Translations under genes and position numbers: made by a program
The notes under the pieces: model-generated
Seen by the model: the letters and a program-made list of their open reading frames with translations, nothing else
Databases searched by the model: none
Told to the model about the DNA's origin: nothing
Origin: Euglena gracilis
Taxonomy: Eukaryota
Length of the DNA stretch: 64,000 bases
Assembly (NCBI GenBank): GCA_039621445.1
Contig: CP154954.1
Coordinates: forward strand, 48,649,847 to 48,713,846
Direction: 5' to 3'
In this document: positions 3,395 through 63,530 of the stretch, in pieces
Layout: the number at the start of each line of letters is the position of its first letter
How positions within the stretch are numbered: position 1 is the first letter of the stretch

Positions 3395-6300
3395 GTCCCC
3401 CAAACCCAGCCAACGCTCAACGTCCCCTCTCAGCCATACCTCTTGGCCCCCAAGTCTCGCCTGCCACCGCTCCAGACGGCGAGAAGGGACACGGGCGCCG
3501 ACCGCCAAAGGCGAAGAGTGCGAAGGCCACCGTGTGCCTGGACTACCTGAAGGGGAAGTGCACGCGAGAGCGGCGCGCACTTGACTCACCCCCCCCCTAC
3601 CTCTCCGCCCTGGAGGGGTGAGTCCCAAAGATTACCGGCTTGTCAGTTCGAAAGATCTCCGGTTGATCACGGTGCAAATGCCAATTTGTATCCGAACCTG
3701 AACGCATTCTCTCTTGGCCGCTGATGGTTTTGACCTTTTGGTGCCTCCGGGCTCAAGGCTGCCTCGTCCACCCAAATGTGCGGGCAAGGAGCGTTTTAAG
3801 ACAATTCCGAAAGAATGTGTCGTTCTCAAATGCAACATGTGTTGTTGTTTTTCCCAACAAATATGGACCCTCTGCTGCATTCCAGGAATGCTGAACTTTA
3901 GCTAATTTATATTTACCATCGCCAATGTTTTTTTAATTTTGTTTCGCTTCAAAAGGTTTGGTGACAGCAGAGGTTGTTCTGTTTTTTAATATAAAAAAAT
4001 TGAGGGCTTTTGTGCCACAGTCCTGCAGATTGCCCTGTTGCTGATATTGGTAGACACCTGGAGTGTGTATTTTTAGTTAAAAAATACTGCATTCATTTTC
4101 CAAAAAAAAGCACCACAGACCTTCCGTCTTGTTTTTCTATTGTCGCCTACGCTTCGCCATTTTTTGAAGAGGATGGGGACAGTGGCATCTCCTTTTCTGG
4201 AGTTTGCCTGGACAGCGTCAATGTCACTGCTACGTGTCTCTACCTCCCCCCCCCTGGGGGAGCAACTGCCATGGCTGAGACCCTGCCAGCGTCCCACCCA
4301 AAAAAAATGATGACCATGAAAAATTCCTAATTTTGGCTCCGATTTTCCCCCAAAACCAAAAAAATGGTCAGTTTGTTGTCTTTGTTACCCCCGGGCCGGC
4401 CCTCCAGACAAAGGCACACCTTTCGACGACGCGGGGGGGGGGGGCAGGTGACCATGCACAGACCAGTCAAAACGGGGAACCACCCCCGCCGCCTTGAGTC
4501 AGGCGCGCCGGCCAGTGCCGCTACCCCCACCCCGACCTGACCCTGTTCCAGCGCCTGAGCGACACCGCCGGCGAGCAGGTGTGCGAGGTGTGGGCCGCCA
4601 CCGGCCTGTGCAAGTTCGGGGCGAAGTGCAACCGCCTGCACCCCGCCCAGTGGGGGCCATAGCCAGGTTCCATGCAAGAGGGTGCGTAGGGGGGTTGAGG
4701 AGGGGTGTCCCCCCTCCAACCCCCCCCCTGGACCAGAGGGGGGTCCAGACCATACCATTGCTTACAGTGCGTCCGACCCCCCCAGGGGGGTTGACTGACT
4801 GGTTTTTTCGGAGTGACTGACTGGTTTTTGGCTCCAGACCACCCCCCGTGGGTGGGGACGGCCAGGAATGGCTGAAAGGAGTGCCCACCCGGTGGCGAAG
4901 GCGCCGGAATTTTTGGGGGGGATTTTGGGCCAGAATCCATTGGTTTTAGGGCATTTTGAGGGATGCTATGGATAAGACAGGCTTCGTATTTTCGCAATAA
5001 TCCGAAAAGGAACCCCCCCCCAAATTGTGTGAAGTCCCCAGGAATGGAGGAATGGTATTTTTTGTTTATTTTTTTCAATTTATTTCATGTGTCGAAATTT
5101 TTCCAGAATTTTTATTAGCATTCAAAAATCGCATTTTTTGTGCTCTTTTTGCACGGGCAAGAAGTTTTTCAGCCAGACTTTTCAGCAGAAGTCAAAAACG
5201 CCCCCCCCCCCCAATGGGCATTTCAGCAACCAACCCAAAAAAGGCAGGCTCAGGGGCGTACACTGGGGACAGTGGTCCGTGCCGTGCCCCGAGCACCCCC
5301 ACTGGCCCCGTCTTTGAGCCGACCCCCAGCGACCCGGTCGGCGCCGCCCAGCCCGCCCCCGCCCTTGCCTCGCCGGCCGACCCCACGCCGCCGGCCGACC
5401 CCCAGGTGGAGTTCGAGACCTTCGCGCAGTCCCTGCTGAAGTCGGTGGACGAGGCCGGGTGGCGGCCAGCGCTGCCCCGGCCCCGGCCTCCCCGCAGAGG
5501 CTGGCGGTGGGGTGGGGGGTGGCGTCCGACCCCCGAGGGAGAGGCGCTCAATGGCCCCCGGGGCGGAAGAGAGCGTTGCCCCCCAGAGGGGGGGGGGTTG
5601 ACCCCCGGGTTTGCTCCTCCCCCGGCCAGGGAGACCCCCCAAGTGGGAAACCGGGGTGAGGGCCACTCACCGAGCGGCACAGCGGAGGGGAACCGAAGTC
5701 GATGCCGCCAACCCAAGGCGCTTTCGCTCAGTGGAGTGTCCCAAAGGTGGTCAGGGCAGGGGATAAAATGTGGTTTGCATTTTTGTGCATTTTTTTTGCA
5801 CTTTTTTCAAATTTTCCAAAACGCGCATTTTTTTTTCGCATTTTCGATTTTTCCAACACATTTTTGCTTTTTGGCACATTTTTTTTTGTGATGGACCCAA
5901 TTTTAAGCATTTTTGATCATTTTTGCAATTTTCTGAAATTTTCAAATTTTTTAACATTTTCCTCAGAATTCTATGTGATTTTTTATAATAAAAATTGGTG
6001 CCTTTTTTGCATGTTTTGGGGGGTAATTTTTGCATTTTCGTGATTTTTGTGCTGTTTCTCTCTGATTTTGCACATTTTTGGCATTTTCCCCAAAATGCGC
6101 ATTTTTTGCAAGGCCGGGCTGGCGCTCCCCCCCCCCTGTTCAGGGTTAAAGGGGTTCCTCAGGTGTGCAAGAGGTTTTCTGAAGCTGGAGGGGATCTGAC
6201 CCCCGGACGGGAGGGTTCCACACCAACCATTTAAGGTAAGCGTATGTCCCTACACCGCTGGAATTACACCAGAGTTGTTCACCTGGCCAGGCGGAGCTAC

Positions 6301-7349
6301 AAAAGAGCACTGTAATTGGTACCTGGCGACTCACCACACAGCAAACTGGGCCTGAAGCGAAGCTAGCGCCGGCCATAAACAGACAAGAAGCTGTTGCGCA
6401 ACTAGGGGAGGGGGTCCACACACAGACAAAATGGGCCAGAGGCGAAAAACAGCGCCAGGCCAGAGGAATGGATATCAGCACCAAACAAACAGCCACAGTG
6501 CACACAGTGGAGGGAGGTCCAGCCACCCAGCACCTTTTTTCCACCCACCAGCTCCAGTACCCCTCAGGGGGCCGCTGAAATGAAGTCTTGACCAGCCCAG
6601 CAGAGCAGGGCAGAATTTGGTGCAAAGCGCCGAAGATTTGTTGAACCTGCGTTCCAGCCAGGTCCTACCTGGCAGCCAGCTGGACCTCCCTCCCCTTGGA
6701 CCCTCCCCCCCCCCCAGGGGGAGGGTCCTACCTTGTTTACCCAGCTGGCCGTCTGGACCCCATCCCCCCCCCCTCACACCTCCAAGTCTCGGTTTACCAT
6801 TGGTGGGCCGAAGGTTGCTGCCCTCCCGTAGTGGTCGGAATGGGGTGGGGCAGCGCTGGCACCAGTCGGATGGTGAGAGGCTGCCCGTGGGCAAGGACCT
6901 CAGCGAGAAGCCACTGGGGCCCCCATCCGTGCAGTCGCTCTGTGGAGCCGAGGGCAATGTGTCATTTTCCGCTTTTGAGAATGCAACCCCGGAACCCCAT
7001 TGTCCACCCACAAGAAATTCCAAACCAAACCCAGCAAAAGAATCTCACGAACACCGCATTAACAACAGTTTGCAAAAGCTGCCGGCCAGTCCGGTGGGGC
7101 TGGAGGTAATTCGGGGAGGGGGGGGCAATTTATCAATTTATCGCCCGCAGGTGCTTTCTTTTGCTCTTGCCCGTATTTATTTCCTCCCATGCCACACCCC
7201 CGCCGTGCGAGTGGAACAGGTCGGGGGGGGGGGCTCCCAGCGGTTGCGTCGCCCCGACCTTCCTGGCCACCCGGGCCTTTCCCGCCGTGCTGCGGTTCGA
7301 TACCATCTTCCTCGACATCCTGAACGACCTCCACCTGGTGGCGTGCTGA
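3395..7349 (+). CDS. Tandem CCCH zinc-finger (MBNL/muscleblind-type spacing) putative RNA-binding protein, multi-exon, 5' end unresolved
   Basis: Exons ~3395-3570, 4513-4644, 5310-5463, 6864-~6940 and ~7175/7245-7349 (TGA). Spliced translation: ...KATVCLDYLKGKCTRE|QCRYPHPDLTLFQRLSDTAGEQVCEVWAATGLCKFGAKCNRLHP|VFEPTPSDP...KSVDEAGW|QSDGERLPVGKDLSEK...VAPTFLATRAFPAVLRFDTIFLDILNDLHLVAC*. This gives C-x7-C-x4-C-x3-H plus C-x8-C-x5-C-x3-H, with GC-rich third codon positions. Start codon and last junction uncertain. Confidence 0.85.
3571..4512 (+). other. Nonconventional intron (paired ends, non-CAG variant) splitting zinc finger 1
   Basis: 5' CGGCGCGCACTTGACTCA pairs with 3' TGAGTCAGGCGCGCCG. Applying the +4/-6 register gives GAG|CAG TGC and restores C-x4-C. 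No GT-AG solution keeps the frame. Confidence 0.75.
4645..5309 (+). other. Nonconventional intron
   Basis: gcc-CAGTGGGGG ... CCCCCACTG-gcccc; removal joins LHP|VFEP in frame. Confidence 0.85.
5464..6863 (+). other. Nonconventional intron
   Basis: ggc-CAGCGCTGCCCC ... GGGGCAGCGCTG-gcacc (12-bp perfect stem from CAG); removal gives in-frame W-Q-S-D. Confidence 0.85.
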
Positions 7350-12580: not shown

Positions 12581-12787
12581 GTAGGAGGAGGCTCGAGCTT
12601 GAACGTTCGAGGTCGAGCCTCCTCAAACATTTTTTTTCAGCTCCACTTCAGGGGGCTTAACCAGCCTCGGCATTCGACGAGGCTCCAGAGCCTCTTCGAA
12701 CAAGCTCGAACAGCATTCGAGGAGGATCTCAAGCCTCCTCGAATGTCGTTTGAGCACGTTCGAGGAGGCTCTAAAACCTCCTCCTAC
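12581..12787. mobile_element. TCGA-rich MITE, TIR GTAGGAGG(AGGCTC)
   Basis: GTAGGAGG...CCTCCTAC termini; partial copies at ~2215-2324, ~2590-2630 and ~16063-16128. Confidence 0.7.
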
Positions 12788-21975: not shown

Positions 21976-24085
21976 ATGGGGAGGAAATCTGAGCAAAAGA
22001 CAGACGAGGAGTGTTTCACTGCTTTTTTTTCAACCAGAAATTTCATTCCCAGGAATGTTTTCTATCATTTTCGTTTCTTGTCATTGTTGTCCAGGCACCA
22101 TGTGTGGTGCTGCTCCCCATTGTTGGCCCCAAGTGAATGCCAGAGGGAGGGAGCAGCATCTCATCCCATCAGCGACTCACAGAGTGGTCTATGCTGCTTT
22201 TTTGGTTGATTCAACGACTTGAAACACTTGGAACCTCCCCTGCAGGCATGCTTCGTTTCCCCCTTGGGACGTCCGTCATTGAGATGTGATCCGTGCCTGC
22301 CCTGATGATGCCAAGCCACCCGGAGTATTTTGTCCAGGCTTTGGCCACAGGCTCGTCGCGCAGACGTCCTGGCCCATTGATGGCAGATTTTCTTTCCACC
22401 TTCCGGGTATCCACCCCCTTCCCGGGACTCTGTCACTTTGAGGTTGCCATTTTCCATCTCAGAAGGTTGTTGAATTTTTTCATTTTTCTGTCTGTGGTTT
22501 CACCGCTTGAGGTTGATGCTTTTTCATCCAAAGCACATTCGTGCTCACCGCCACATTGGTCGCAGCACTCCAACGCTTTGATACATTTTGGGGTGTCACG
22601 GTGTTATGGATGCATCCTCCCCAAAAAATTGTTGAAAATAACGTCGAGAAAATTCTTCGGGATGAAGCCCGAGGGTCCATTCCCATTCCCTGTCGTTCTG
22701 GATGCGGAATGGTTTCCACACATTTTTTGATCGGTTAATTTGTGTGATCATACAAAGATCAGCATGTCTTCTTTTTCATCAGACGATCTATGGGGAGTCT
22801 GGGATCGGTGTGCGCTGAGCCACCCCCCCCCACCATCACAGATTTTCACCTGGGAGTCTGGGCAGGGGTCGACCGAGGGCTCTACGGGAACCCCCGAAGC
22901 CCTGTACTGTGGGTGGGACGTGGGGGCGTGGGTCGACCCCCCCCCAACCCACCAGGGCACCCCGCAAGGAAAAAATCCCTTCGGTGCCGAAGGCGGCAAA
23001 GGAAGCATTTGACCTAAAAACCACGACCCCCCACCAGGATTGGGGTGGGGTGGGGGTGGTCGACCAACCCCACCCTGTGCCTGGCCCGCCGCTGGCCCGA
23101 ACGTGCATTGGCTCCCGGACCCGCCCTGCGACGTTCGCCCGGGGGCTGCCACCCCCACCTCTTTGGCGGCCGGGGCCTGGGGGCCTCGTTGGCGACCAGG
23201 CCGAGGCAGGCCGCCCGGTGGGCCGTGGCTGGCGGGGCGCGGCGGCCGCGGCGTGCGCGGTCTGCGGTGCCTGCGGTGTGCTGCTGGAACGCGGGGTCCG
23301 GGGGGGGGGGGGTGCGCCCCAGAGCGTGCCTGTGCTCTTTTGGGGTCTTCGGACAACCTCCGAAACCCCCGGGGGGTCGTTGGACACATGGTGTCATTGG
23401 ACTCATTCATGAATGAGTCGTTGGACTCATGCATTGCAACATTCAGTTATAATTATACTTAGGCGGCCTAACTTGCATTTAAGGTTTTGATTTTTAGCTT
23501 GCGCTTTGGCGCAAATTTTCAACCTTTCTGAGACCCGGCGGTAGAACCCACCCTTTTGACCCTCTAGTTCTGCGGAGACCCTCCACGGTGGCGTGTGCAT
23601 CATTTGCCGATGTTGGGACCTGGGGAACAGGCCCAATTTTGGTGTTTTTCAGCCTGTGCACCATTTTGAAAACGGTTCAAAACCCCGGGTTTGACCGCCG
23701 GGACACGTGAATTTTCCCAAAAAATTGCCAAACCCCCATTGTGAGTCCCTCGTTTTTGAAGCCTTGACTGTGTTCCCCAGATGGTGCTACACAGGCGGGG
23801 TGTAATTTGGCCTTTTTTGTTGCTTTTTTAGGCTCTGTCATGTGTCCGTGAAGGGTTGCCTGCTGAGGCATCCAGAGGGTGGACTCTATATACACGTTGT
23901 GAAAAGTTGGAAAAAACGGCATGTCACAGAGTTGTGATCCCTGGGTGCTTGAAGTGCAAGGAGCGGTACAGGGGGAACCACCCAGGTGGGGGGGGTTGGG
24001 GGTATTGAGGGCAAGCCCATGGACCTGTCCCAACGTCTGAGCAACTCCAGGCCCCACACTGCCGGGCACAGAAGGCAATGGTTAT

Positions 24086-24555
24086 GGACATTGCGCTTAA
24101 GCGCAAATTTTTAACTTGCACTTAAGCGCAATGTAAAAATTTGCACTTAAGCGCAAGTTAAAACAGAAGCCCCTGAGCTTATGGGAGTCCCTCTGATGTG
24201 TTACGGTGTGTCGGGGGCCCTTCTCTGCACGGCCAGTGTGCGGGCTTGGTGAGGAAATACATTGCACCAAAGCGCAAGGGACATGCCTACATAATGCACT
24301 GCTTGTTCATTCAGATTACACGTCAGCCGCCTGTTTGCACTTCTCAGTTTTTTGTATGATGTTTTGCGCTTCGGCGCAATGTATTTCCTCACCAAGCCCG
24401 CACACTGGCGTGCAGAGAGAAGCCCCCGACACACCGTAACACATCAGAGGGACTCACATAAGCTCAGGGGCTTCTGTTTTAACTTGCGCTTAAGCGCAAA
24501 TTTTTTACATTGCGCTTAAGCGTAAGTTAAAAATTTGCGCTTAAGCGCAATGTCC
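24086..24555. mobile_element. Foldback element with ~190-bp inverted arms
   Basis: 24086-24277 is the near-perfect reverse complement of 24364-24555; arms contain repeated TTGCGCTTAAGCGCAA palindromes. Confidence 0.9.
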
Positions 24556-26218
24556 TTTTAAATGGCAGATTCATTTGAATGTGTTCGTGCTGTGTGAGAA
24601 GGTGGACGATAGAGGAGAATGATGAGGGGGGTTTGAGCGCTGCTGCCTGAAGCTCAGTTGGGGCAACAGTTATCAATTTTGAATTTCTCATTTTTATCAC
24701 TGCGGGTGGAGAGAGCAGTCCTGGAAGGATCTCATTACCAGAGCGAACAGGGCTAAGGTGGAAGGAAGCCTTGCCTGGGACAGGAAGCCAACCCCCTGGT
24801 GTGTGCAAGCAACCACCAACTTCTTCATATCCAGACGTGTCTTGTCCTATGCGTTGCAAACCCAACTTCCAGTGCCAGAGGTTCCTCCCACTTGCCTCGC
24901 AGTTAAGCATGCCTGAGGGGCCCTTCTTTTTGGCCGACTTTTGAAAGTTGGAAAGCTTCTGTTTGGAAAAGAACAGGTACCAGATAAACCCTGGGAATCA
25001 CTACCGAGGAAACAGTTTTAGGCGCCGAAAGGGTGTTTAAAAGAAGCTCGTCACCCCCCTTTCCTCGCCCAGGATTTGAAGCACACAACTTTGGGGATGA
25101 GCGAATGCAATTGAGAAATGGAGAGGGTTCATCGACAACGGCGGAGAAGGGAAGAGATGCTGACACACCGTTTTTCGGTAATTTGCAACCCACCAGACAG
25201 CCACATCACACCGGGCAGATGGAGGGCATTGTTCAGCCGAAAAAGGTCTTTCTGTCAACATCCCAAAAAACCCCACTTTGTGCACTGAGGGCAAGGTCAG
25301 TGAGGCTCCACAACCCCACCGCCCACGATTCATCTGATTGTAACGGCCACTCCCTCCCCAGTGCCTGAATAGTTCAAAGGCAAGCGCAATGGGTAGATTT
25401 ATGAAATTTATGACTTACATTGTGCCAAAGCGCAATAGAAATGCGCTTTTTAAAATCGCAAAACAGCGTGGCTCTTGCGCCAACGCGCAATGTTGACCAA
25501 TTTTAAGGCAACGCGACTGAGAGTAGGCTTCCATCCCCCTATCCTGCATTTTTGTGCTCTATCACCTCCGGTGTTCATACTCTGCCATGGCTGTTCTCTC
25601 CCTCCATTGTGAGATAAGTTTTAAACAGTTATATTTGCGCTTCGGCGCAAGCCATGTTGCTTTTGCAATTTTGAAAATTGTATTTTTATTGCGCTTTGGC
25701 ACAATATAACTCTTAAATCTCCGTTCTTCATGAGCCTGCCCATTGCGCTTTGGCGCAATGGAAACACACGTTGACACAAAAGTCGTTATCATTGTGCAAG
25801 TGCGGCAATGGTCACCCACATGTTGAAATACAAAAAAGTTAAAAATTTGCGCCAAAGCGCAAATGGTTTTATTTTTTGTAATGAAAAAGAATTGTGCCAA
25901 AGCGCAAATGCACAATGGAGTCCGCTTGTTTCATCGCCCGGCGCTTTGTGTTCATGCACACTGGCCCCCGGGAGCGCTGTGCCCGTAGACCGTGGAGTTC
26001 CAAGTCGTTTGTTTCGTCCCCAGGCCCTGGGGTGCAGGGAGACACTATTTTCAGACTTCCCTGAGTCTCAGGCCTCGGTGTTCAAAAACAGAAAAAAAAT
26101 TTTGGATTTGCGCGTCGGCGCAAATTTACAGTCACTTTCAAAGCTAAGTGAGAGTTAGGCCACAGGAGGGCTGCCGTTGGCGGTTGTCTCGATTCCCCTC
26201 CGTACTTGTGTTTGGTTG

Positions 26219-27021
26219 TCAATGATTGGTTTCCAACGTTGACACGTCAAGTGCCGGGGAGCGCGTCCGTGTCCCCCACCCCTCTGTGGCGACCGCGCTC
26301 CTCGGCCCCGGCAGCCAGAGTTCGGTGGCCAGCATCTCCGCTCCTCCCCCGCAGGCTTCTTGGCGGCCTCCACCCGGGGCCTCGGCCGGGAGGTCCGGCA
26401 CAACGGTCTGCCGGCGGTCTTTTATCGGAGCCAGGTGGCTTTCTGCCCCTCCCCCCTCCGTGTCCCCCTGGATGGCGGTTTGGGTCCAGGCAGTGGGCTT
26501 CTTGGCTGGCCGCTTGGTTTGCGGTGCTCAAGCAACGACCTGTCCGAATCCAGTTGCCACCTCCTACCCTGTCCCATGACCTCCCTTACATATCCATCCC
26601 GATTAATAAAAAATTGGAATGTCAATCCGCCGAACAACAGCGCACAATTTTTCGCTATTCTCAGAGGTTGTATTTCACCTTGACATTGAATTTCACGGTG
26701 CCAAGCTTTTCACATGAACTTCAAGAAGCGAGCACAAGTTCTGGAGGAGAATTCCAGGGTTCATGCCTGGCTCGCTTTTTCGAGAATGCCGAAGGGAGGA
26801 GGCAATTTGTCGGCCGAATTTTGAAGAATTGCGACCGCCGTTGACACAACACTGAAAAAAATCTGGAGGGAAAATTCACAAAGTTACAAATTCTGCAAGA
26901 ACAATCCCATTTTTTTTCAAAGATCTTCTCTGCGATATTTTTATTTCATTTTCATATTCCATTTTTTCCCCCATTGTCCCTTTTTTTATCCACATTCAAC
27001 AAATTATGTTTTGCCACACGC

Positions 27022-27108
<87 letters not shown>

Positions 27109-33450: not shown

Positions 33451-33674
33451 ACCCACCAGCAGGAGGGGAGGGGGGCCCCCACCTGCACGGGTGGACCCCC
33501 TCCCCCACCTGCCCCTCCCCCAAAACCGGGAATTTTTTGATCACCACGCCGACCCAGGAGGGAAGTGTTGCTGGGCCCAGCCGACGGGTTTGGCCAGGAC
33601 ACGTTTCCTTTGGAAGGAGTTGGCGAAACTGAAAACGATGCTTCAGAGGCCTCTCTGGGGTTCCTTTGCAGCTT

Positions 33675-40396: not shown

Positions 40397-43300
40397 CTGT
40401 GGCGGAATGAAATCTTTGCCACTGTATTTTCATTTGCATGATGCATTTTACCAACATCTACATCTACATCTGCATAACCCCCCAAAAATAAGACCCCTCT
40501 GGACGTTCCGAGCAAAAATCCATGAAATGGACCCCCATGAATAAGACCCACCCCTGGCCCTTCCGAGAAAGGCCCTAAAGGCCCCGAGAAAGCCCTTCCA
40601 TGAAATGGGCCCCTCCATAAAAGTGGGAAAGGAATGGCCGGAGGCCTGAAGGAAGGCATGACAAGAAGAGGTGAAAGGAAAACATTTTTTAATGATCATG
40701 CATCAGTAGCACAGCTTCATTGCATGCATGGCCCCTGGGGTCAGGGTGTTGGCCTCTTTTTCTTGTGGACAATCTCGGATATATCTTTAAAATGACGTGA
40801 GAATCAGTGCTCAAAAGGGAATCATGCAATAATTTTCAAAAACAAAAAAATTCCTGAAAAAATCCATGCAATGGACCCCCCCCATGAATAAGACCCCCCT
40901 CAGGCTTTCCAGCAACAGACCCATGAAATGGACCCAGGTTATTATTTTTGGGGGGGTTCTCCCTCAAATGACCTATAAATGCTGGTTAAGGACCACCTGA
41001 AGGTTCATTTTGGGGGTTCATTCGGGGGGGGGGGGGTCGCTGAGCACTTGTCCCTTAATGAACTCAGATACCTTTGTGCTCTTTAGAGCCCTTTCATAAC
41101 CCTTTATGGAGAAGAGAAAATCTCACCACCAGATAAACCCACCTCGTTCCAAAATTATTCAACAGAAGGGGCCCAAACTGGTCAAGATCCCATTTTGATG
41201 ACGAAACCAACCCGACCAAAGTCAGCCCAATACTGACAATATTTGGGACAAGTTTGGCCAATGTTTGGCCATTTTTCGGTTTGTCCAGATGCCAACCACC
41301 CCAAAATATGTCCCCCAAAAAACCTATTTTGGACCCATTTTGGGAACTCCCATTTTGACCCTAGGGACCGATTTTCCTTTGGCGATTGGATATGGGGGGG
41401 GATGGGGAGGGGGCTCGGAACCCCTCCACAAAAATGACATTTTTCAGCTACCAGTGTCACACAGATACCCCTCGAACATGGGTCATGGGTCGGCTTAACA
41501 AAGAAAACTTGAAACCAAGCACCTCCAGAAACTTGGGTATTTTGGTGCTGTTGCCAGGATTTGTTCAGCCAGATCATTTGGGTGATTTGATCCAAAGCAA
41601 ACAACGTGTGGCCCACCTTACAGTTAATTTATGGGATTGGTGTTTGTCTCCGACCAGGGGGGGGGTCACAAAAACAGCCAACGTTTTGTCTCCGACAAGC
41701 AATTTCTACTGTTTGTCGCAACCTGACACAAATTTTCAACACTCTTTGAATGGAAAAGATCGCATCTGACAGGGGGGGTCGTTGGGCCAAGTTGTTGGAC
41801 AAGGGGGGGGGAGGAAAATCATTTCGAAACGATCACAACCAGCTGCTGGGGAATGAGTTGTTGAAAAATCAAAAGAATCCAACCACCCCAAAAAAGCAGG
41901 GAAATTAGCATCTATGGTCAAACATATAACAATAGTTGTTGTTGTGGCAAAAAAAAAAGGTGCACACACTGGAGATAATGCTATCCTGCAACTGACCAGG
42001 ATTACTTCTTTCAATTCCAACAGCAAAGAGCTCTCCTTTTCAAAACAGCCATTCACCAAAAACAAAAGCAAAAAAAAGCTGGAAAGGTGTTTTGCAAACC
42101 ACTGTCCAAATCAAAACATTCCTCTTTGAGGCAACGTCATTTCTCGTTGCAAAAAAACTGGTGTTCTCGGGATTTGTCATTTGTCAGGATTTGTCGGAAT
42201 TTGTCAGAAATCCGTACCCCAGAGGACCCAAAAACTGTTGTCAGGATTTCAATTGAACTGGAAAAACATCCATCAAGAACATGTGTTGGTGATTCCATTG
42301 CTTGCTGACCCCCCCTCAGTTGCACTGAGGCTTCTTGGGGGCGCTAAAGCCCCCCCCGGGGGGTTCCACTTTCAAAAAACCAATCACTCACTTTCAAAAA
42401 CCAGTCACCCACTTTCTAACCCCCTCCAAATCACAATGGAAACTCGTTGGCCAAAACCCCAAAAAACTTCGGCACCAGGTGGGCTACTTTCGGTCGATCC
42501 CCCCCCAACTCTTTGGAAAAAAAAGTCAACACACCGCTTCTTGGTTTCTGGCCTTCGTTCCGTGTGTGGTTGTTGAAGATTGGATTAGCATTGTTTGCTC
42601 ATGAAAATATCGAGATGGGATTGCAACATCGCTTCCAAAAAGGAGTCACACAGAACTGGTAGCATTTGAAAACTTTTATCAAAATGGAATGCAAAAATTG
42701 TGTCACAGCATTTTGGGGCGAGTTGCCTAATTGACGGCAAAGACCAGGTTGCACAATGTCAAAGCCACAAAGAGAGGTAATGGGGTTCTGGGTTGATGCT
42801 GTCAAATTGAATGAAGCGGTGTCCCAAGCAATGCAGGTGCATTGGACAACAGAATAGCACCATCTTGCAAACGTTGAGGAATAGACGTTGGCTTTCCCAG
42901 ATGCAAATTGCTGCTGTTCACAATTTGCTGGGCATTGTGATTGCTAGCAGCCATTGAACCCACTTCAGGATGGGGGTGGGAGGGGATATCCATGTGGAAG
43001 GGGAGTCTTCATCATGGTGCAAAGCATTTCTTGACCTCATCTTAACGTGCGAGGTTGTTTCTTGAAAAATAAACACCCCATAATATCCCCCCGGAACACT
43101 ATTTGGCCAGCCGAAATCACCCTCAGGGGGGAACATGATTTGGGAGGAGCATAATTTGGCACTTTTTTTGTATTTTCAAATGCATTTCATCCATGTTGAG
43201 CACCATCAAAATACATGGGGGGTGGAATTTATATTTCAAAAAAATACAATTTGGTATTTTCCATTCGTTTTCAATCCAAACATGGTAGAATTCATGCAAA

Positions 43301-44550
43301 AGTTGCAAAAAAATATAGTTGCAGGAAAACTCAGTTTTTTCTGTGGCGGTCCGTGAAAAATGGGGGAATATTATTTGGGCGGCCGAAGTCAGGTCCCGGG
43401 GGGAACACTATTGGGGGGATATTATTGGGGGGGGGGTTGTGTTCTTGCGGAGAACATAGAAACTGGTGTGTGGGGGAATACTTTTTTGTTGTTTTTCTAA
43501 AAACAGGCATGTCATTACTTTTTTCCTTCAAAAATGCGGACTTTTTGGGGGAAAAACCACTCCCCTCTCAAAAGGAACAATAGCCATATGCAGTCTTCAG
43601 AGGCATCTGAGAAATCACCATTTGTATCATTGGGCCACACACTTCGACTGTAAACAGGCACGAAGACATCTCTTCTTCTTATCGCTCATTTTGTAGAATC
43701 CAAGTTTCGGTATCCGACATCAGTAAATTTTCATCAATTCAAAATAAAAATAAAAACAGTCCAAGAGCCCATAAAAAGATTCACTTCCAGCAGGACAACT
43801 GTGCGCAAGACAATGCCCAGGATGGAGTGGCATCTGAAGAAAGTGAAGATGAGGACAATGGCCAAAACCGCAATGGGTGTTGCTCGGTTGCAGCTCATTA
43901 AACTTCCTCCTGATTGCTGACTCCCATCATTGAAAACGCCATGTTGTGGTTGCATACAAAAGCCAAAAAGAGAGAAAAGAAAAACCAATGATCTCCTCGG
44001 TGATGTTCACTTGCCCCCTCCCTCACTCCTCCCGAGCAAAAATCCGCCCCACTCAGGGTGTCGTTGGTGTCTCCTGATATCCTCGTTCTTTCTCTTTTTT
44101 TTTCTCAATGTTTTGACACGGCAGAACGTGGAGGTTCATTGGCACAGTTCGGCATGCCTTTGCAGAGGGGGTCGGCCAAACCGGGAGGGTCCATGGGGGG
44201 GGGTATGCCAAATCTCCTTTGAACAGTAGGGGAACTAAATAGTGGGACAACTGAGAATTTTCTGGGTTCATACCCAACCCCGAGCTCCAAAGCCTCTGCC
44301 AGCCCATGGGATGTGGTGATGGTGTGTGCACATTGGCATGGCCCCTGCCCCACGCAGCAGTGCCCCAGCCAGCTCTGCTGCAGCACGCTGTGCAAAATTC
44401 AGGCCAATCCTATGCGAGCAGGTTTTTTCCATTTTCTGACCCCTTTTGAACTGCGAAGCAAACCCAGCCTCAGGTGAGGGACGAGGCGGCTCAAACTGCA
44501 GTGAGTGGCATTGGACCGCACCTTTGAACAATGCAAATTAACAACCCCTG

Positions 44551-52900: not shown

Positions 52901-55900
52901 GCATTGGTGGACCACCCAAGTCCAACAGTGAAACGTATGCTTTGCTAAGCCCAGGTGTATTTCTCGCAGCAAAATATGTTGTGTTTCTGCTTTTGGCGTG
53001 AGACAAATCTTTGGACCACATCGAGCTGTTTGTTTGTTTGTTTGTTTTTCGACGCATAAATTGAAGCATATGGTCCAGTCTCTGAGTTATGGTTGCCGGT
53101 TTAGTCGTAGTCCCTTCACTGTCCCTTCCCTCACCACACAGGTCCATCACCACTGGATACTTCAAGGTTGCCCAGTGTCGTGCACGCCCTTTTGGCCAAG
53201 ACCCGGTCCACACCCATGCTTACCCGAGCCCTGCTGCTGTGAAAGAAACGGGTGCCGTGTTTCATTTAAACTTGTTCGTCCGGCAAATCCCCCTTGCTGC
53301 GCAATGGTGTGCTGCCGTCAAGGGCTCCCGTCAGCCCTGCCGAGGCCCCGCTGGATTTCCAGTTTGTGAAGGATTACTTGCCAGGGTTCGCTTCAGGGAA
53401 CTATCTGTGGAGGCTTCTTCTTTTTTTTCCAACTCAGAAGACCCCCCCCCCCGGGTCTGAGGCCGGACCCCCCTTCCCAGGCCATAGGCCGGCTTTGGCA
53501 AGAAGTGCTGGAAAAATTTTGTGAACCAAGGACGGATATTGGATATCGGCCCATACGGGTTTATCGAAAACCTTGAATTTATCGGGTCCCGAAAAAAATA
53601 TCATGAAATATCGGCTTTATTTGGGGGGGGGGGTAACGCACTTTTCTTGTTTTTTGGGGGCGATTTTTGGATTCTCCAAATCATAAAAATGAGGCTATCG
53701 GGGCACAAAATGATCATATCAGTTTATTGACTTTTATCGAGATATTGGGGGTGCCAGTCTATCCAAATTTATCGGGACCCCCCCCCTAAAACCAATATCA
53801 ATATCCATCCTTGAGTGAATTGCTTTCAGATGGCCCGATTTTGTGGGGAGGGGCAGGCTGGGTGGGTGGGGGCAACCCCCGGGGCCAGAAAAAGACGCTT
53901 GGTCTGTGGAATCTTTGGCAGGTCTGGTGGTCTGAGCCAGTCGGGAGTGACCCCCTGCCCCCACTCCAGCTTGGAAAAGCTGACCCAGCCCGAGAAGTGG
54001 ACCATCGACACCCTGACCAGCATCGCCAAGGACGCCATGGATGATCATGCCAAGGAGATTGTGTATGCAATTGAAAGGTATGATGTGGATGTGAATATGT
54101 ATGAGAGATTTTAGCGTCGAATGCTAAACCCGCCCCCAAATGATAACCCCCCCAAATAACCCCCCCCCCCCCCCCAGGACCAACGTCAGCCACCCAAGTA
54201 ATAAACCCTCCTCTCTTGCAGCTGTGAAGGCGTTAAAAAAAGGGAAAAAGCAGCAGAGATGTTGCAAAAAGAATCACAAAAATGGATGAAATCGGTGCAG
54301 AAAATATGCAAAAAAGAACCAATTTTTTCAAAAAGGACCAACAATTCCGAAAATGTGACCATTGGAGCCTCTGGAGGGGTTTTTGGGTCGATTTTTGACT
54401 TCGAATTCCCCCCCAAATAATGGGCCCCCCAAATAATTACCCCCCCCCCTAGACCCACCCAGACTTCGAGTGTCCAAATAATAATTCACCAAGGGGGGGT
54501 TATATTTTGGGGCGGTTTACATGGCACCTGGTCTTTTCAATGTCGCTGCCTGTGTTGGGGGCCCGGGGGGGGGGGGAGGGAGTCCAGGCAAAAAATTGTC
54601 AGTCGCCCTGAAAAAACCAGTCACCCACCCCTCGGGGGGTCAGCCTGTGACTAAGCGCTTGTAAGCTCCCAACACAAATGTATGTTTTTTATTGCCGGAG
54701 TTGGATTGATCGACACAAAAAACACATAAACAGTAGTCAAAAGAATCTTAAATTTCAAAAACTGGCTGGTTTCAATAAAATTTTGAGGGAGGGTTTGGTG
54801 CATTAGGTGTATTATCAGATATGGTGAAACAGCACCAAAAGCTGTTGTCCATCTCCTTTCAGCTTCTTGGAAATATTTTATCACAAATCTATTTTCTTTT
54901 GATCTGAAGGTCCCTCTATCTCAGACGGCCTTTTCACCAAAGAAGTCCCTGGACCGTCAGCATTCCAGGAACTGGCGGTGCTCGGAGAAAAGAAACAAGC
55001 CCGGAACAACATGTACACACCGCACAACACGATCGCGCGCATATGCGCACTTCCTCGTGCCCACCCATGCACAATCTGACCCCCCCCAATCGCGCACATA
55101 TGCGCTTGATGTGACGAATCGCGCACATGTGCGCACAATCTGATCCCTCCAGTATGGTGTGTGTCTTGGTGCTGGGAAAGAGGGGGGGTCGGCAAAAGAC
55201 CACAAAAGTGACGTTGTGGTGAAGGACCCGGAAATTTTTTTTGACCTGTTTTTCACATTTGTGGTCAAAATTCCTTTGGATTCCAGAGTGACCCACGCCA
55301 CTTTTTTCGGAACACCAGTCAGTCACTACGATCAGCCACCTGGGAGGGCTGACTGGTTTTTGAAGCAGAAGTGATTCCCGGGGGTCAGAAATAATTGTAT
55401 GGTTGAGAGATGGCTGGTTTGCACTTTTTCTTGCCGTCAAGAACCTCTTTGTTGATCCGAACAGGAGGATCTACAGCGCAACTGGTGATGCTAAATTGGC
55501 CGCTTGGTATCTGTTGGATTCCATTGCAAAGAACGTTGGTGGAGTCTATGTGAACCGATTCGCTGAGCATTTACCCAAAATGGCCTGCCGGAATATGCAA
55601 ATCACTGGTGTCATTCCTCCCTTTCATCCTCCCTTGTTTGTGATACCACCCTCTTTCACCAGGGTGTCTTCCACTGATTCTTCCGAAAGAGCATTGCCAT
55701 TTATAATCCCCGTCTCTGAATTAAAGTGCTGGTGCATTGATGGCAGACCGCCGCTTTCAGCAGCGGGAGTTGTGTTTCTATTTTTTTGGACCTGTTTGAT
55801 ACCTTTTTTGGACCTGTTTGATTTCTGTTTATTTCTGGAGGCTTCCCATTAAAATTGGGGGTGCGCGTGCGGTGGACCGGACCGAGGGCGGACTTGTGGT

Positions 55901-58036: not shown

Positions 58037-58067
<31 letters not shown>

Positions 58068-58112
58068 GTGTGTGGGGGGTGTGGGGGGGTGTGTTTTTGT
58101 GTTGTGTGTGTG

Positions 58113-58172
<60 letters not shown>

Positions 58173-61100
58173 ATGTATGTATGTATGTATGTATGTATGT
58201 ATGTATGTATGTATGTATGTATGTATGGCATCTGTGATTCAGGATCCGTGCTTATCCTGAATTGGATAACTCTGGATAACTACAGATAAGAACGGAGATG
58301 TGCGAAACCCGAAATACGGATGACCACGGATTAACTACGGATAAATATGGATATGTATGGATAAATGTGGATAATTATGGATATGGGGTCTGGCATAACT
58401 GAGGAGGGCTTTTGACTGAGAGGACGGGAGGTGTTTCATGTATCGTGCACATCAGCATTTGGATGCCAGTCAAATTCTTTTGATTGGTATTTGGACGTCT
58501 CAGAAGTTGCATTTAATCCGCCTTTTCTCATTGCATTTCATTGCAGTTTTTTTGGGGTGTTTGGCCCAGTCAATAACCTCCCCCCTAAAAAGTGCACGGG
58601 TGCGCGTATTTTTAGGACATAGTTTCGTACCCTGCAGGGGTGCGTGCACTCATTGGGGCACTGCTCACGGCAAGGCACAAAATACTAAATTTTCCACCAC
58701 TCTTTTTCAGTTTTTCCTATTCTTGTGATGTCAAGCAATGAGTCAGGTGATTATGTGTCAAATTTGGGCTCAGATGATAGAAGTATTTGGTCTGAGGAAG
58801 ACAGTATTGAGAAAAAACGTAAAGTCAGCATAATTGTGTGTGCTCTGACCTGATGTGGCAACAGTTTCTCCTTGGGGGGCATGCACTTTTTAGGGAGGTA
58901 GTTTGGGACCCTTTGGTGGTGCGCATTAATTGGGGCACTGCGCATAATTAGGGCACTGTGCACTTATCAGGGGGGTTACAAGCGCTTTTGCAATTACAAA
59001 TAATTACAGATAATTATGGACAACTATGGATGATTATGGATGAGGATTTGACCCCCAACGATGGATAAGCACCAACCCCTGTGTGTGTGTGTGTGTTATT
59101 TTCACAAAGTCTCAAAATGCTGTTATATGTTTCATATATGATTAGCAGGGCTCAGCTTGTTGAATGTGGGGCGGGTGTTTCATAGGACCGGGCTTGCTGC
59201 AAAAATTTCTTTTTGACGTACCCCCTCCCCCTAAATGAACCCCCTGCCCCACTGTTTCTCTGATTTGAGATTCATTGTTGCTCGTTCATGTTTCAGTTGT
59301 CTTCCAATAATGGCAGATCTGTGAAGGTTTTGAATTGCAGATTACATCTTTCAATGTAACATTCTGCTTTTTTTTTATGCGACCTTCAGAGCATGCAGCT
59401 CATGACACTGAGCCAGTTGGAGCAGCTCGCATGCAGCATTCTCCTCCACGAGATCGTATGTTCTTTTGCTTTCCAGTTGAAGTTTTTATCCATTTTCCCT
59501 TGTTTTGGAGGTTTTCCAGTTGCATTGGTGGCAACTAAAGATGAGAATGCATGCTTTGAAGAAAATGTCCTTGTCTCATACTGTATGTGATGATTTGACT
59601 AAAAGGTTCAAAAGTGGTCTTCTGTTTTTTTTTTATTGGGGCAACCGGATGACCCAAAATGTTATCTCGTGATTTTGATGTGTGTCACAGAATACTCTTT
59701 TGCAAATGATTTCTGAATGGATACCGCCCTTTTTTGTTACGTATGTCAGCTAGAACCAGGCCCGACCAGGGTCCAACCGGATCTACAAAATTAGCTTTGC
59801 AAAAAGGCCATCTCCCAAAACCCTTTATGCTTCTGTTCATCAATGCCGTAAATATGTTAACAGACAGGGTTGAATCACATAACTCTTGCCCCGGGACAGG
59901 CGCCTTTTCGCTGAATGGGGCAACTCTTTTCAGGGCCCCAACCCCACCCTCCCGACGACCTCGTCAGTCTGGCGTCGACGTTGCCGAAACCCCCAGAGGA
60001 CCTTGTGGCCTGGCTGTGGCACAGGATTCTCTGCCAGAAACCTGCCACCGCCTTGCTGTGTATGAGGTCCGACACGTCATCGTTGGAATGACCAACTTCC
60101 AATTGCATCTTCGCCTTTGAGAGAGGCCATCAATTCTCCCAACTGATGTGTGATCGCTGGGTGCAATGCACGTGGAGGATTTGGCCGCCGTTGACATTGC
60201 TGGGCCGCATTGCCAGTGCCAAACCTCCGGCGAGTCAGAGCACAGAACGTTCCGAACGCTGTTGCATTCCGGGTCGCCCACTCCGTTTGGTGTGCCCCGG
60301 CTTGCCCCGGCCCTGGTGGACGAGGGCGCGCCCACCCTTGGCACGGCCCCACCGCTGCCCCCCATGCCACCCCCACCCGCCGCCTTCCGGAGCGAGGGCC
60401 TGGGGCCCACCCCGCCCCGCCCAGCCTGGCCTCTGGTGGCAAACAGGAAGCCTTGGCTGCGACCGGCCGCTGCCTCCCCCCAGCCTGCAAGACTACGGAG
60501 CACCACTCCCACCGACGCCTCCCCCCCTGCCCCCGGGTCCCCCAGTGCACCTCTCAGTGCAGCACCGTTCAGGCAATCTGGGCCAATCTGGGTTGGTGGG
60601 TTCCCAGTCAAAAAACAGTGTTTTCCAGTTCAACGCATGGCAAGCCAAGCTGTGGTGGCACCGCCATCCAATGGACAAGAATTACGGCTTTTGCTCAGAA
60701 AGTGGACGTTCGTTTGCTGCGAGGGAGAAAGTCCGCATCTTTCCCTATTCTCAACCTCCCCCCCCCACATCTGGCTTCTCCTGTGCCTTGTGCCTCCCTC
60801 CGACCCCGGCGGCCTGCGACGCCCCTCGCCATTTGCTGTCGGGGACGGGGCCCTCCCGCTCCCCCCGGTTCCGCCCCCCTCCTCCTCCCTGCTGGCGGTT
60901 GACCCCGAGCTGGCCCTGCTGCAGGAGCGGCACCGCCCGGGACATTGCCAAAGGGGACGCCGTGTACCCAGTGGTGGGTGGGCTCCCAACGGACTCTGGA
61001 GGAACCCTCCTTCGCCCTGAACTGCTTGTTTTTCCCCCCCAAAATGCACCACCGACGCAGTGTGCCTCAGACACCCCTGGGTTTTTTGCAGAAATGGCAT

Positions 61101-63530
61101 TGGTTGATGTTTGCCCGCAGGCGGGCAAACATCATTGCCGAGGGCGCACGTTACCGGGACTCAGAGACGTTGCAGGGACTTGGGGGCTGGCCCTTTTTTT
61201 TTGGCTTGTAAGACCCCCTCCCCTGTGCGCGCGCATGTTCACTCACCACACGGAACACACCCGGCCAGATGCGAAGACCGCACTGGCATTAAAAAAATGA
61301 ACAAACATGAAACCTTTTTTGCATCAAAAGGGGGTCCGGAGCCAGGCTGGGTGGGGAACCCCTGGGGAAGGCTTCAAAAGAAGCCTGCTGGGGGGTACGG
61401 GTTGTGGTGGAACGCGACGCCCTGGCGCCGCCTACAGCTTCTCCAGCTGGAGAGGGAGAGGGACGAGCTGCAGCGCCGCGTGGCGGACGCCGAAATGCGG
61501 CGGAGTGGCGTGCGGCGGCTGACCGAAGACCGCAGACCCGCCCCCAAGGCCGCCAACCCTCCTCCGCGCGAAGAAGAGGTGTGGCGGCATGGGCCAGCCA
61601 GGCATGTTGCCCACCGCACATCCATGCCATGTGAACATTGGGGTTGGGGGAAGGGCAAAGCCCACTGTTTCATGTCCTCTGTATTTGAGAGGGGCTAACA
61701 GCCCAAGTAGATTACCAGTCTTCGTTCTGAAAGGGGTGGAAAGTGTTTTGATTTTATCTCAATGGTGAGGTTAGCAATGTGGATTGGTGTGGATTGGGAT
61801 GGATTAGTTTGGATTGAGTTTGCATCGGTGATGGGCATCTCTTTTGAATTTATCATTTTCATTTTTTATCATATTCATATTTATCATTATTATTGTTTGT
61901 TTTTATTACAGTTTTTTTTTGTAGCTTTTGAATTTTTTTGTTTTTTTGTTGTATGAACTGTATGAATTGTATTCGCTTTCTCCCAGACTGTGGACCGCAT
62001 CATGGCTGCGCCTTTGGAAGAAATGCAGCCACCTCTACCACCAGTGCCTCCTTGCCAGGCTTTTCCTCCTGTTCTCTTTGGTGTCAAACTCCATGCCAAA
62101 ACCCGGCAATGTGTTCACCCCCCCAGAGCTGACCCTGAGCCCCTTGGGTGGTGTATGAAGGGGGTTGTCCATTGAATATCCATTAGTGGGTGGGGTGGGT
62201 TGGACTCCCCCCACACCAGGTTTTCTTTTTTCTTTTCAAAGCTTTCAACGGGTATCCTTCAGATGCCTTCAGTACCGAAGGAATTTGTCCTTGCGAGCTG
62301 GCATACCCACCATGTGGCCCTGCCCCCCTGCCTGCCCACCAGTTGGAGGGCAGGCACAACACTTAGGGTATCCCGGTCCACTGGCTGACACGCGGCAGGG
62401 CAACCCCCCCTTTCTTTTCCAGGAATTCCTGGCTGGGTGGGCCCCACGGCCGCAACCAAACCGCAGTGCCCAGTTTTCTGCACGTTCGGGTTCTCCCGCG
62501 CCGAATTCGCATCAAAGTCCCCCCCCCCTGATGGTGTCGGAGTGCTGTTTCACAAACAAAAGCCTGCCCTCGGCCCGCCCCCACTGCCCGCCACCGCCCC
62601 GCCCAGCAGCGGCGGCATGCAGATCCGGCTGAAGACCGAGGACTTGACGCAGCTACACACCGAAGAACGCGCAGCGGCGGTGGAGGTGGAGATGCGCGTC
62701 ATCCCCAGCATTGAAGGTGCTGGCCCATGAGTTCCACTCCGCACTCCCTCTGTCTGGTTTGAGCAATCTTTGTCCAACAATCCAGTTCAAGGCAAATTCT
62801 CCAATTTGACATAGTTTCGATCAAAATTTGTTTTTTCTGATTTTTGTGAACACTCATCCAAAATTTTGGGGAAAAATTACCGCCCCTGCCAAGAGCTGGC
62901 TCCCCTCTTCTGTGGAGTCAGGGTTTTTTTTTAGTCTTGGACCCTGGGGGGGGGGGCAGGGGGGGTGGGTCTGGCTGAGCCCCCTCCCCCCCGGGGGGGG
63001 GGTCCCCCCAGGGGGTGGGATATACTTTTCGGCGCCAAAGGCACCGAAATTTTTTGAAAGAGGTGCCTTTTTTTAGCATTTTTGTTATTTTTTTGGCCTT
63101 TTCAGGGAAAAGTGGGTTGGGTCCCCCAACCCCCCCCCCCGGCCAGGGGGTGGGCGGGTGGGGGGGGGACCCCCCCTCCCCCCAGTCTTAAAAAAAACCC
63201 CTGGGTGGAGTGATCATGGTTGACAAAAGCAAACAGGGCATTTAGCCATTGTGCATGTATTATGTGCCCATCACATCCCTCTGTTACGGCTTACACCGAA
63301 AGGTGGCTGCCGTTTTCCCTGGGGAAAAAGACAGACTACGTGGCGATGCACACGCGGTCCCTTCTCTCTCAGTGGGCAATCCCCGGCCCGTTGCCTGGCC
63401 ATTCGCGGAGGGGGCTGGGGCCAGTGCCCCCCAGCCAGCCCCGCCCCCGCCGCCCCCGCCCCCGCCTGCCGCCCCGGCGCTGTTCAGCGGGCCACCCCCG
63501 GACACCCCAGACCAGCAGCAGTGCCACCTT
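49937..63530 (+). CDS. PCF11: Pcf11-like CTD-interacting-domain (CID) protein, multi-exon, 3' end unresolved
   Basis: Exons ...-53378, 53963-54077, 55465-55607 and 56070-56246 splice to DFQFVKDY|YSSLEKLTQPEKWTIDTLTSIAKDAMDDHAKEIVYAIER|RIYSATGDAKLAAWYLLDSIAKNVGGVYVNRFAEHLPKMACRNMQITG|SNQQKYAKLLRTWAEMAVFPPEVFQRIKEE. This matches the Pcf11 CID pattern (SSLE.LT; KL..WYLLDSI.KNVG; L..TW...F). Upstream in-frame GT-AG exons: 49937-49957, 50011-50154, 51111-51462, 51522-~51592 (link to the CID inferred). Downstream exons: ~59390-59455, 59934-~59990, ~60315-60440, 60897-60934, 61430-61578 (coiled coil), 61987-62100, 62458-62716, ~63300-63530. Confidence 0.75.
52197..52526. mobile_element. MITE with GGGGATGCCGA TIR and 3-bp TSD (AAA); PIF/Harbinger-like geometry
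   Basis: GGGGATGCCGACACACGGTGTGCGGCACA vs TGTGCCGCACACCGTGCTTCGGCATCCCC; AAA on both sides. Confidence 0.75.
53379..53962 (+). other. Nonconventional intron within the CID
   Basis: tgc-CAGGGTTCGCTTC ... GGAGTGACCCCCTG-ccccc; removal yields GAT TAC T|AC TCC AGC TTG GAA (DYYSSLE), the conserved CID start. Confidence 0.85.
53527..53813. mobile_element. MITE (TIR CAAGGA.GGATATTG) nested in the nonconventional intron 53379-53962
   Basis: CAAGGACGGATATTGGATATCGG vs CCAATATCAATATCCATCCTTG; internal TATCGG repeats. Confidence 0.7.
54078..55464 (+). other. Conventional GT-AG intron within the CID
   Basis: GAAAG|GTATGA ... GAACAG|GAGGATC gives IER-RIYS in frame. Confidence 0.85.
56743..57152. repeat. 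Compound degenerate (CA)n/(AG)n/(TA)n microsatellite
   Basis: Direct inspection. Confidence 0.9.
57606..58227. repeat. Degenerate (TG)n plus (TATG)n microsatellite
   Basis: Direct inspection. Confidence 0.95.
58240..59081. mobile_element. MITE with CAGG...GTGCTTATCC TIRs and degenerate GGATAA(C/T)TA(C/T) 10-mer arrays; carries a nested MITE (~58521-58979)
   Basis: CAGGATCCGTGCTTATCC vs GGATAAGCACCAACCCCTG; 10-mers near both ends; no clear TSD. Confidence 0.6.
60935..61429 (+). other. Nonconventional intron
   Basis: gcc-CGGG ... CCCTG-gcgcc; joins LALLQERH|RLQLLQLERERDELQRR, a continuous coiled coil. The exact position slides within a CCGCC direct repeat. Confidence 0.75.
62101..62457 (+). 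other. Nonconventional intron (CGG/CCG variant)
   Basis: acc-CGGCAATGTG ... CACGGCCG-caacc; phase-0 junction LHAK|KPQCP. Confidence 0.55.

Follow-up and report, generated by a model that had tools for sequence, protein, structure and literature searches.

Nonconventional introns with paired ends next to GT-AG introns in a 64-kb stretch of Euglena gracilis nuclear DNA

Introduction

The nuclear genes of Euglena harbor, besides GT-AG introns, also nonconventional ones, and for these a noncanonical splicing code, 5'-N3CDG-/-CH'GN5-6|R, has been published (Nomura et al. 2025, PMC12501133). Knock-in mutagenesis is reported there to have proved the CAG/CTG motifs, the spacers of 3 and of 5(-6) nucleotides (nt), the adjacent pairing and the purine with which the following exon begins; the knock-in cells made functional protein from the interrupted genes, and CGG-CCG, CGG-CTG and CTG-CAG variants were accepted, the first two as functional derivatives. 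In the present study we followed up a sequence-only reading of a 64,000-nt stretch of Euglena gracilis DNA (contig CP154954.1, hereafter the window), which had proposed twelve introns lacking GT-AG borders and having complementary ends. Ten introns of this kind, five in each of two genes, are present in the genomic DNA of the window and absent from the mRNA, and we assign the confirmed intervals to the euglenid nonconventional introns with a probability of roughly 0.95. The feature is real, the core interpretation of the sequence-only reading is correct and the phenomenon is already known.

In Euglena agilis 71.8% of the introns are nonconventional according to Nomura et al., and the share in E. 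gracilis is comparable. Genome-wide, the code was found in 61.2% of the nonconventional introns of E. agilis and 38.8% lie outside of it; many genes carry both intron types, and hybrid introns make up 0.8% of all introns (PMC12501133). For E. gracilis a catalogue of 28,337 introns includes 16,151 nonconventional introns of 30–5931 nt with terminal pairing (Gao et al. 2024, PMC11170887). These later genome-wide shares are far above the one reported for a set of 271 E. gracilis introns, 80.1% of which were conventional and 8.5% non-conventional (PMC6366073). Nonconventional introns are reported to be removed after the conventional ones and to have a conformation unlike that of tRNA or self-splicing introns (PMC6221363). 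The motif at positions +4..6/-8..-6, repeats resembling target site duplications, a proposed origin from miniature inverted-repeat transposable elements (MITEs) and the excision as full-length circles have been summarised (PMC11282704), and the MITE origin is also proposed by Nomura et al. (PMC12501133).

The introns confirmed here do not differ in kind from those described before (Nomura et al. 2025; Gao et al. 2024; Milanowski et al. 2014 and 2016). They share with them the organism, the non-GT-AG borders, the paired ends and the coexistence with GT-AG introns in one gene, and, in part of them, CAG at +4..6, CTG at -8..-6, the spacers of 3 nt and 5-6 nt and the purine of the next exon. Their lengths of 46–1400 nt fall inside the published range, and the variants CGG-CTG, CGG-CCG and CTG-CAG are published as well; five of the ten lie outside the strict code, as do 38.8% in E. 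agilis. The rule put forward by the sequence-only reading, namely an intron start 3 nt before the stem and an intron end 5 nt after it, is the published code.

Results

The translation of exon 4513–4644 is 100% identical to the protein EG_transcript_12097 of EukProt (199 aa), and EG_transcript is the naming used for the Euglena gracilis Z1 transcriptome (PMC6366073). Thus, the host is a euglenid, and the window is nuclear DNA of E. gracilis; its G+C content is about 45–58%. By mapping this transcript-derived protein (P0001 in the following) exon by exon, we could resolve the first gene, gene A:

2688..7349, plus strand: gene A, encoding a CCCH zinc-finger protein
2728..3451, plus strand: nonconventional intron, absent from the sequence-only reading; P0001 mapping, stem and duplex
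3571..4512, plus strand: nonconventional intron, proposed and confirmed; P0001 reads CTRE|QCRY
4645..5309, plus strand: nonconventional intron, proposed and confirmed; P0001 reads RLHP|VFEP
5464..6863, plus strand: nonconventional intron, proposed and confirmed; P0001 reads EAGW-Q-SDGE with a split codon
6926..7256, plus strand: nonconventional intron, absent from the sequence-only reading; P0001 reads LGPP|TFLA

The six coding exons (2688–2727, 3452–3570, 4513–4644, 5310–5463, 6864–6925 and 7257–7349) join to an open reading frame (ORF) of 199 aa plus stop which differs from P0001 in 3 residues. Across the three junctions that had been proposed, P0001 agrees exactly and at codon resolution. 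The junction 3571–4512 is straddled by a Pfam zf-CCCH_10 domain (residues 38–70, E 7.8e-13), and the claim that removal of the introns rebuilds a CCCH finger is correct. Two of the proposed introns have the expected ends, GCC-CAG...CTG-GCCCC|G with a 9-bp stem in 4645–5309 and GGC-CAG...CTG-GCACC|A with a 13-bp stem in 5464–6863; the latter has a duplex energy of -46.6 kcal/mol and, with 1400 nt, is the longest confirmed nonconventional intron. In 3571–4512 the closing pairs are CGC/GCG and not CAG/CTG, the stem consists of 5 bp, a bulge and 8 bp (-29.2 kcal/mol), and the first letter of the next exon is C. Among the two additional introns, 2728–3451 has a 10-bp stem closed by CAA/TTG, a 3' spacer of 6 nt and a duplex of -19.6 kcal/mol, and its borders can slide on a CCAA repeat. 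In the other one, 6926–7256, with the ends TC..CG, the stem has 11 bp and the 3' spacer 7 nt, and its boundary is ambiguous by 1 nt from the protein, as CCA and CCG both code for proline. The coding sequence of gene A contains five nonconventional introns and no GT-AG intron.

The second gene, gene D, was resolved with sequencing runs which we compared with positions 24001–44000 of the window. X1 is a contig run, taken as RNA by guess; X12 and X16 are raw-read RNA runs, libraries from different studies, and X16 is stranded. X11, the kind of which is not on record, is the best match to the stretch (0.67 of words, introns included). From these runs 15 joints were listed out of 377.

32998..44000 and continuing past 44000, minus strand: gene D, nine exons seen; RNA joints in X1, X12 and X16
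42922..43823, minus strand: nonconventional intron, absent from the sequence-only reading; 38 X12 and 19 X16 reads, 1 X1 contig
42617..42829, minus strand: nonconventional intron, absent from the sequence-only reading; 51 X12 and 78 X16 reads, 1 X1 contig
40397..42534, minus strand: GT-AG intron; joint 40393>42532, CT..AC, cut +3; 20 X12 and 38 X16 reads
35888..40158, minus strand: GT-AG intron; joint 35883>40155, CT..AC, cut +4; 29 X12 and 15 X16 reads
35796..35841, minus strand: nonconventional intron of 46 nt, proposed and confirmed; joint 35791>35838, slide 4; 36 X12 and 33 X16 reads, 1 X1 contig
34404..35708, minus strand: nonconventional intron, absent from the sequence-only reading; 5 X12 and 8 X16 reads, 1 X1 contig
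34245..34307, minus strand: nonconventional intron of 63 nt, proposed and confirmed; joint 34243>34307, slide 2; 12 X12 and 11 X16 reads, 1 X1 contig
33139..34195, minus strand: GT-AG intron; joint 33137>34195, CT..AC, cut +1; 16 X12 and 8 X16 reads

After removal of the introns one reading frame is open through all nine exons (43824–44000+, 42830–42921, 42532–42616, 40155–40393, 35838–35883, 35709–35791, 34307–34403, 34195–34243 and 32998–33137); the two exons that were compared with Pfam matched no family. All eight joints, five nonconventional and three GT-AG, are present in X1, X12 and X16, the read support ranging from 5 (X12, 34404–35708) to 78 (X16, 42617–42829), and none of the eight was found in X11. 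On the contrary, X11 contigs run unbroken through the introns of 46 nt and 213 nt (pieces 35670–36197 and 42519–43296). Within the introns of gene D the RNA depth is near zero, whereas the exons are covered. The nonconventional introns are interleaved with the GT-AG introns: a single X1 contig of 573 nt contains five consecutive joints in the order nonconventional, nonconventional, GT-AG, GT-AG, nonconventional. Thus, both kinds of introns are removed from one mRNA. The proposal that two splicing systems alternate on the same pre-mRNA is in this respect supported by gene D; its extension to every gene of the window is not, given gene A and gene B (see below).

Of the five nonconventional introns of gene D, the two that had been proposed read GGC-CAG...CTG-CCAAC|G in 35796–35841 (hairpin fold -25.8 kcal/mol, z -3.57) and GGC-CAG...CTG-TTTAT|G in 34245–34307 (13-bp stem including G-U pairs, fold z -1.79). 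For 42922–43823 the borders are ATC-CTG...CAG-CAAATT|G, the stem has 11 bp and no slide is possible. Neither of the remaining two can be slid: 34404–35708 has AG..CT ends, a CCCCA/TGGGG stem and a 3' spacer of 8 nt, and 42617–42829 (213 nt, GC..CC on the minus strand) is off-code with an interrupted stem and a duplex of -17.6 kcal/mol.

In three positions, 33063, 40231 and 36875, the RNA mostly carries another letter than the window and the DNA of X11; at 33063, for example, T is replaced by C in 15 of 24 X16 reads compared with 0 of a depth of 49.6 in X11. An allele, a paralogue, a difference between strains or editing may lie behind these variants.

To sum over both genes, ten introns are present in the DNA, absent from the mRNA and have neither GT-AG nor GC-AG borders at any slide. 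Five of them belong to the twelve that had been proposed and five, two in gene A and three in gene D, come in addition. None of the twelve proposed or the five additional intervals has GT/GC...AG ends; GT-AG borders were found at 33139–34195, 35888–40158, 40397–42534, 23276–26354 and 54078–55464. All twelve proposed intervals show N3-C(A/G)G...C(T/C)G-N5 in the orientation that had been given, except 3571–4512. The strict code N3-CDG/CH'G-N5-6 applies fully to five of the ten transcript-supported introns, and a purine follows in nine of the ten. As the published code covers 61.2% of the nonconventional introns, a departure from it does not speak against membership.

Next to the borders, the pairing of the ends was compared with chance. 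For the first and last 22 nt of all ten transcript-supported introns the duplex energy is between -15.5 and -46.6 kcal/mol, and nine of ten lie beyond the 5th percentile (-15.9 kcal/mol) of 3000 random placements (mean -7.6, standard deviation 4.5 kcal/mol). The five GT-AG introns range from -2.3 to -17.2 kcal/mol, and only one of them lies beyond this percentile. Short stems behave differently from long ones. Pairs of the type N3-CDG/CH'G whose stem has 4 bp or more occur 142,627 times in the window compared with a mean of 122,415 in five block-wise, first-order shuffles which preserve the dinucleotides approximately, and a clear excess appears only from about 12 bp up (309 vs 79), to which repeats contribute. 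Within ±30 nt, stems of 9–13 bp have 0–1 equal alternatives in the same phase and stems of 3–4 bp have 43–163. Therefore, the sequence alone supports only the cases with strong stems; the terminal pairing of short stems is by itself non-discriminating. In an all-against-all BLAST of the 17 introns only one related pair was found, which stems from a duplication within gene D, and no intron family.

Four of the twelve junctions had been placed on a minus-strand gene model under 26427–32997:

30231..32997, minus strand: proposed intron of 2.8 kb; 5' boundary real, 3' end unsupported (loose-end reads of X16)
26427..28164, 28268..29043 and 29781..30084, minus strand: three proposed introns, unsupported (stranded RNA, stems, codon score)
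31363..32501, minus strand: decayed tandem copy of the gene D segment 32932–34394, inside the proposed 2.8-kb intron
23276..26354, plus strand: GT-AG intron of the transcript of gene B; X16 reads

The stranded RNA does not support this gene model, and we consider it probable that 26427–28164, 28268–29043, 29781–30084 and the 3' end of 30231–32997, possibly together with two candidates of gene F (see below), are chance matches of a permissive rule on wrong gene models, the region of 26.4–33 kb not being the 3' part of gene D. Over 26002–30670 the minus-strand depth of X16 is at most 0.12, compared with 5–14 on the exons of gene D, and the X16 reads found there (depth 0.3–3.3) derive from plus-strand RNA, opposite in orientation to gene D. 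This RNA has a GT-AG intron of its own, 23276–26354, as the letters carried by 21 X16 reads with their start at 26354 are exactly those of 23245–23274. The contiguous stems of the three unsupported introns are 4, 3 and 4 bp long, with 52–163 equal same-phase alternatives nearby; including the 7-bp stem of 30231–32997 and the candidates of gene F, the alternatives within ±30 nt number 7–163, and the shuffled sequence is nearly as rich in pairs conforming to the rule. The flanks are without clear coding signal: a codon-usage score, which was trained on about 650 codons, chose the frame correctly in each of 3 leave-one-gene-out tests and serves as a hint only, is negative in all frames for 29044–29780 and 30085–30230 and ambiguous for 28165–28267 (+0.13 plus, +0.19 minus), and the long ORFs of 26–30 kb matched no Pfam family. 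The decayed copy 31363–32501 is 77–84% identical to 32932–34394, with frame-breaking indels in the exons and a change from CAG to CAC in the copied 63-nt intron. On the other hand, although no joint for any of the four introns is among the 15 listed of 377, weak joints may hide among the others; a different strain or allele may be the source of the RNA runs, in keeping with the variants at 33063 and 40231; and the duplex of 30231–32997 (-27.0 kcal/mol) is matched or beaten by only 0.1% of the random placements.

The 5' side of 30231–32997 is in fact real. In X16, 23 reads begin at 32997/32998, placing the exon end at 32998 and the intron start at GGC-CAG. These reads run on into about 30 letters that are found neither at 30230 nor elsewhere in the window, and which, read in frame by hand, would extend the protein of gene D. 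Consequently the reads contradict the proposed 3' end and with it the claim of paired introns up to about 2.8 kb. The exon following 32998 would be more than 33 kb away, on another allele or a paralogue, or lost by misassembly near the poly-C/poly-G tracts at 32894–32947.

The homopolymers of C and G at 30141–30168 and 32894–32947 collect hundreds of X12 reads with joints that go back by 2771 (32911>30141) or connect opposite strands, along with poly-C/G loose ends. An intron circle was considered for these joints and rejected, as they lie on the poly-C/poly-G tracts with sides of 21–22 nt; their appearance is that of a low-complexity artefact or of a repeat present in many copies.

In gene B the GT-AG intron is the only kind of intron seen, and for the product of this plus-strand transcript, if there is any, no Pfam family was matched. 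The ends of the intron 23276–26354 pair unusually strongly for a GT-AG intron (-17.2 kcal/mol), which may mark an 'intermediate' intron or come from plain G+C richness.

Two further genes had been included in the sequence-only reading:

53379..53962, plus strand: proposed nonconventional intron of gene E (CID-domain, Pcf11-like); homology
54078..55464, plus strand: GT-AG intron of gene E, deduced from homology
60935..61429, plus strand: candidate intron of gene F; CGG/CTG motif, 4-bp stem
62101..62457, plus strand: candidate intron of gene F; CGG/CCG motif, 4-bp stem

For gene E a search with the exon 55466–55582 against a library of representatives returned 10 proteins. The spliced gene is colinear with four full homologues of CID type (P0007, P0009, P0010 and P0011), without any gap at 53378|53963, and its KDYYSSLEKLT is placed opposite RSYAEELEELT, SSYRAELEELT, QEYDYILADLT and DEFYEHLLELN. 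By homology only, this argues for the intron 53379–53962 (TGC-CAG...CTG-CCCCC|A, 5-bp stem) and for the rebuilt CID start DYYSSLE that had been claimed. The later exons gave two colinear CID matches below the Pfam threshold (profile positions 45–83 and 93–119). No identical transcript protein was found for gene E, and the search of longer proteins with exon 53965–54084 (3 candidates) yielded nothing. Exons of genes E and F compared one by one with Pfam gave no meaningful match, and a PDB sequence search with a 40-aa exon of gene E gave an armadillo-repeat match alone, which we rejected as spurious. The protein P0003 (73 aa) matches the CID exon and also the read-through letters beyond it at 55583–55609 (..ACRNMQITG), which suggests, judging from the letters, a paralogue or a related euglenid locus with conserved sequence past the exon end.

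In gene F the codon-usage score is positive, in the frames that had been proposed, for three of four flanks: both flanks of 60935–61429, which has 64 same-phase alternatives nearby, and the downstream flank of 62101–62457, the upstream flank of which has no coding signal. The scores and the published motifs CGG-CTG and CGG-CCG weigh against the chance origin considered above. Neither a protein nor a Pfam match was found for the flanks, and exon 62458–62727 gave no significant hit among 533 candidates from longer proteins.

Taken together, five of the twelve proposed introns are proven, one is supported by homology, one is half right, three are doubtful and two are candidates.

Over the window, Rfam gave no match at the gathering threshold. 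Pfam gave no family for 40 long ORFs (486–1361, 8–23 kb, 26–30 kb, 37–53 kb and 60–64 kb), and no additional gene received a name from this search. Long (TG/CA)n and related microsatellites at 57000–58300 and 27010–27113 give rise to spurious cysteine- and valine-rich ORFs of 200–300 aa.

Discussion

The confirmed intervals combine removal from the mRNA with ends that form pairable inverted repeats, and their cuts lie 3 nt 5' of the helix and 5–8 nt 3' of it. We suggest that a machinery which is probably distinct from the ordinary spliceosome would recognise the terminal helix, cut at fixed offsets from it and join the exons, and that on the same pre-mRNA the GT-AG introns are taken out by the spliceosome. 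Several points weigh against this interpretation. Six of the twelve junctions originally proposed are unconfirmed. Five of the ten transcript-supported introns are off-code (CGC/GCG in one, CAA/TTG in one, a 3' spacer of 7 nt in one, a 3' spacer of 8 nt with CCC/GGG in one and a weak stem in one), in line with the published 38.8% outside the code. Among the 15 joints listed of 377, none is a back-splice of a confirmed intron.

Concerning the machinery, an ordinary or modified spliceosome could act at non-canonical sites, the helix merely bringing the sites together. The existing reports leave room for this, as they describe the machinery as unidentified (PMC12501133, PMC11170887) and find hybrid introns in which the two types of motif occur together (PMC12501133). 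Nevertheless, we regard it as unlikely. The ten confirmed introns lack GT, AG and any constant dinucleotide at their ends, the cuts follow the helix, the 5' spacer being 3 nt in each case where a stem starts at +4, and circles with full-length ends rather than lariats have been reported (PMC11282704, citing J Mol Biol 2021).

In a speculative vein, to which we attach little weight, the half of the proven introns without CAG/CTG might have their cut sites set by helix geometry alone, or might form a second class outside the code that is recognised by a factor of its own. In the same vein, the joining in RNA of the last exon seen in gene D to one missing from the 33 kb downstream might point to a very long intron or to a join between loci, rather than to a difference in assembly or allele.

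It is hardly credible that the introns are artefacts, that is, jumps of reverse transcriptase over hairpins or direct repeats, or transcript misassembly: paired ends in all of them would favor such skipping, and short direct repeats flank two of the five nonconventional joints of gene D and one of gene A (slides of 2–5 nt), but three of the five gene D joints share no letters, the same joints recur in two raw-read libraries of different studies and in the contig set, each removal leaves one open frame and returns to gene A a CCCH finger significant in Pfam, and in knock-in cells such interrupted genes yield functional protein (PMC12501133). Likewise, it is most improbable that the elements leave the DNA itself, like MITE-type transposons, in some of the cells, with the joined form as a DNA allele, for despite terminal inverted repeats, direct repeats resembling target site duplications in some introns and the MITE origin proposed by others (PMC12501133, PMC11282704), none of the eight gene D joints is found in X11, the contigs of which are unbroken across the introns of 46 nt and 213 nt, and the RNA is depleted of intron sequence.

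When other systems are considered, the tRNA introns of archaea and eukaryotes, which are removed by the tRNA splicing endonuclease at a bulge–helix–bulge, resemble the present introns in that a helix around the junctions and not the end dinucleotides sets the cuts, and in that the excised intron can be a circle. However, the arrangement of 3-nt bulge, 4-bp helix and 3-nt bulge is not evident in the nonconventional introns, the offsets of which are asymmetric (3 vs 5–8 nt). With the introners or MITE-like introns of other protists (PMC11282704) they have in common terminal inverted repeats, repeats resembling target site duplications at some junctions and a variable interior. In contrast, introners elsewhere are described as being spliced by the spliceosome at GT-AG (PMC11282704), and the 17 introns compared here include a single related pair. 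The diplonemid noncanonical introns (PMC12621601) are likewise abundant, euglenozoan and non-GT-AG, but belong to another organism.

For the annotation of introns from sequence, the rule is too permissive when the stem is shorter than about 8 bp. That nonconventional introns exist, that their ends pair, that they obey the 3-nt/5-nt rule, that they dominate genome-wide and that they occur alongside GT-AG introns has all been published, and the window only adds further examples of introns which represent a remarkable second eukaryotic splicing system.

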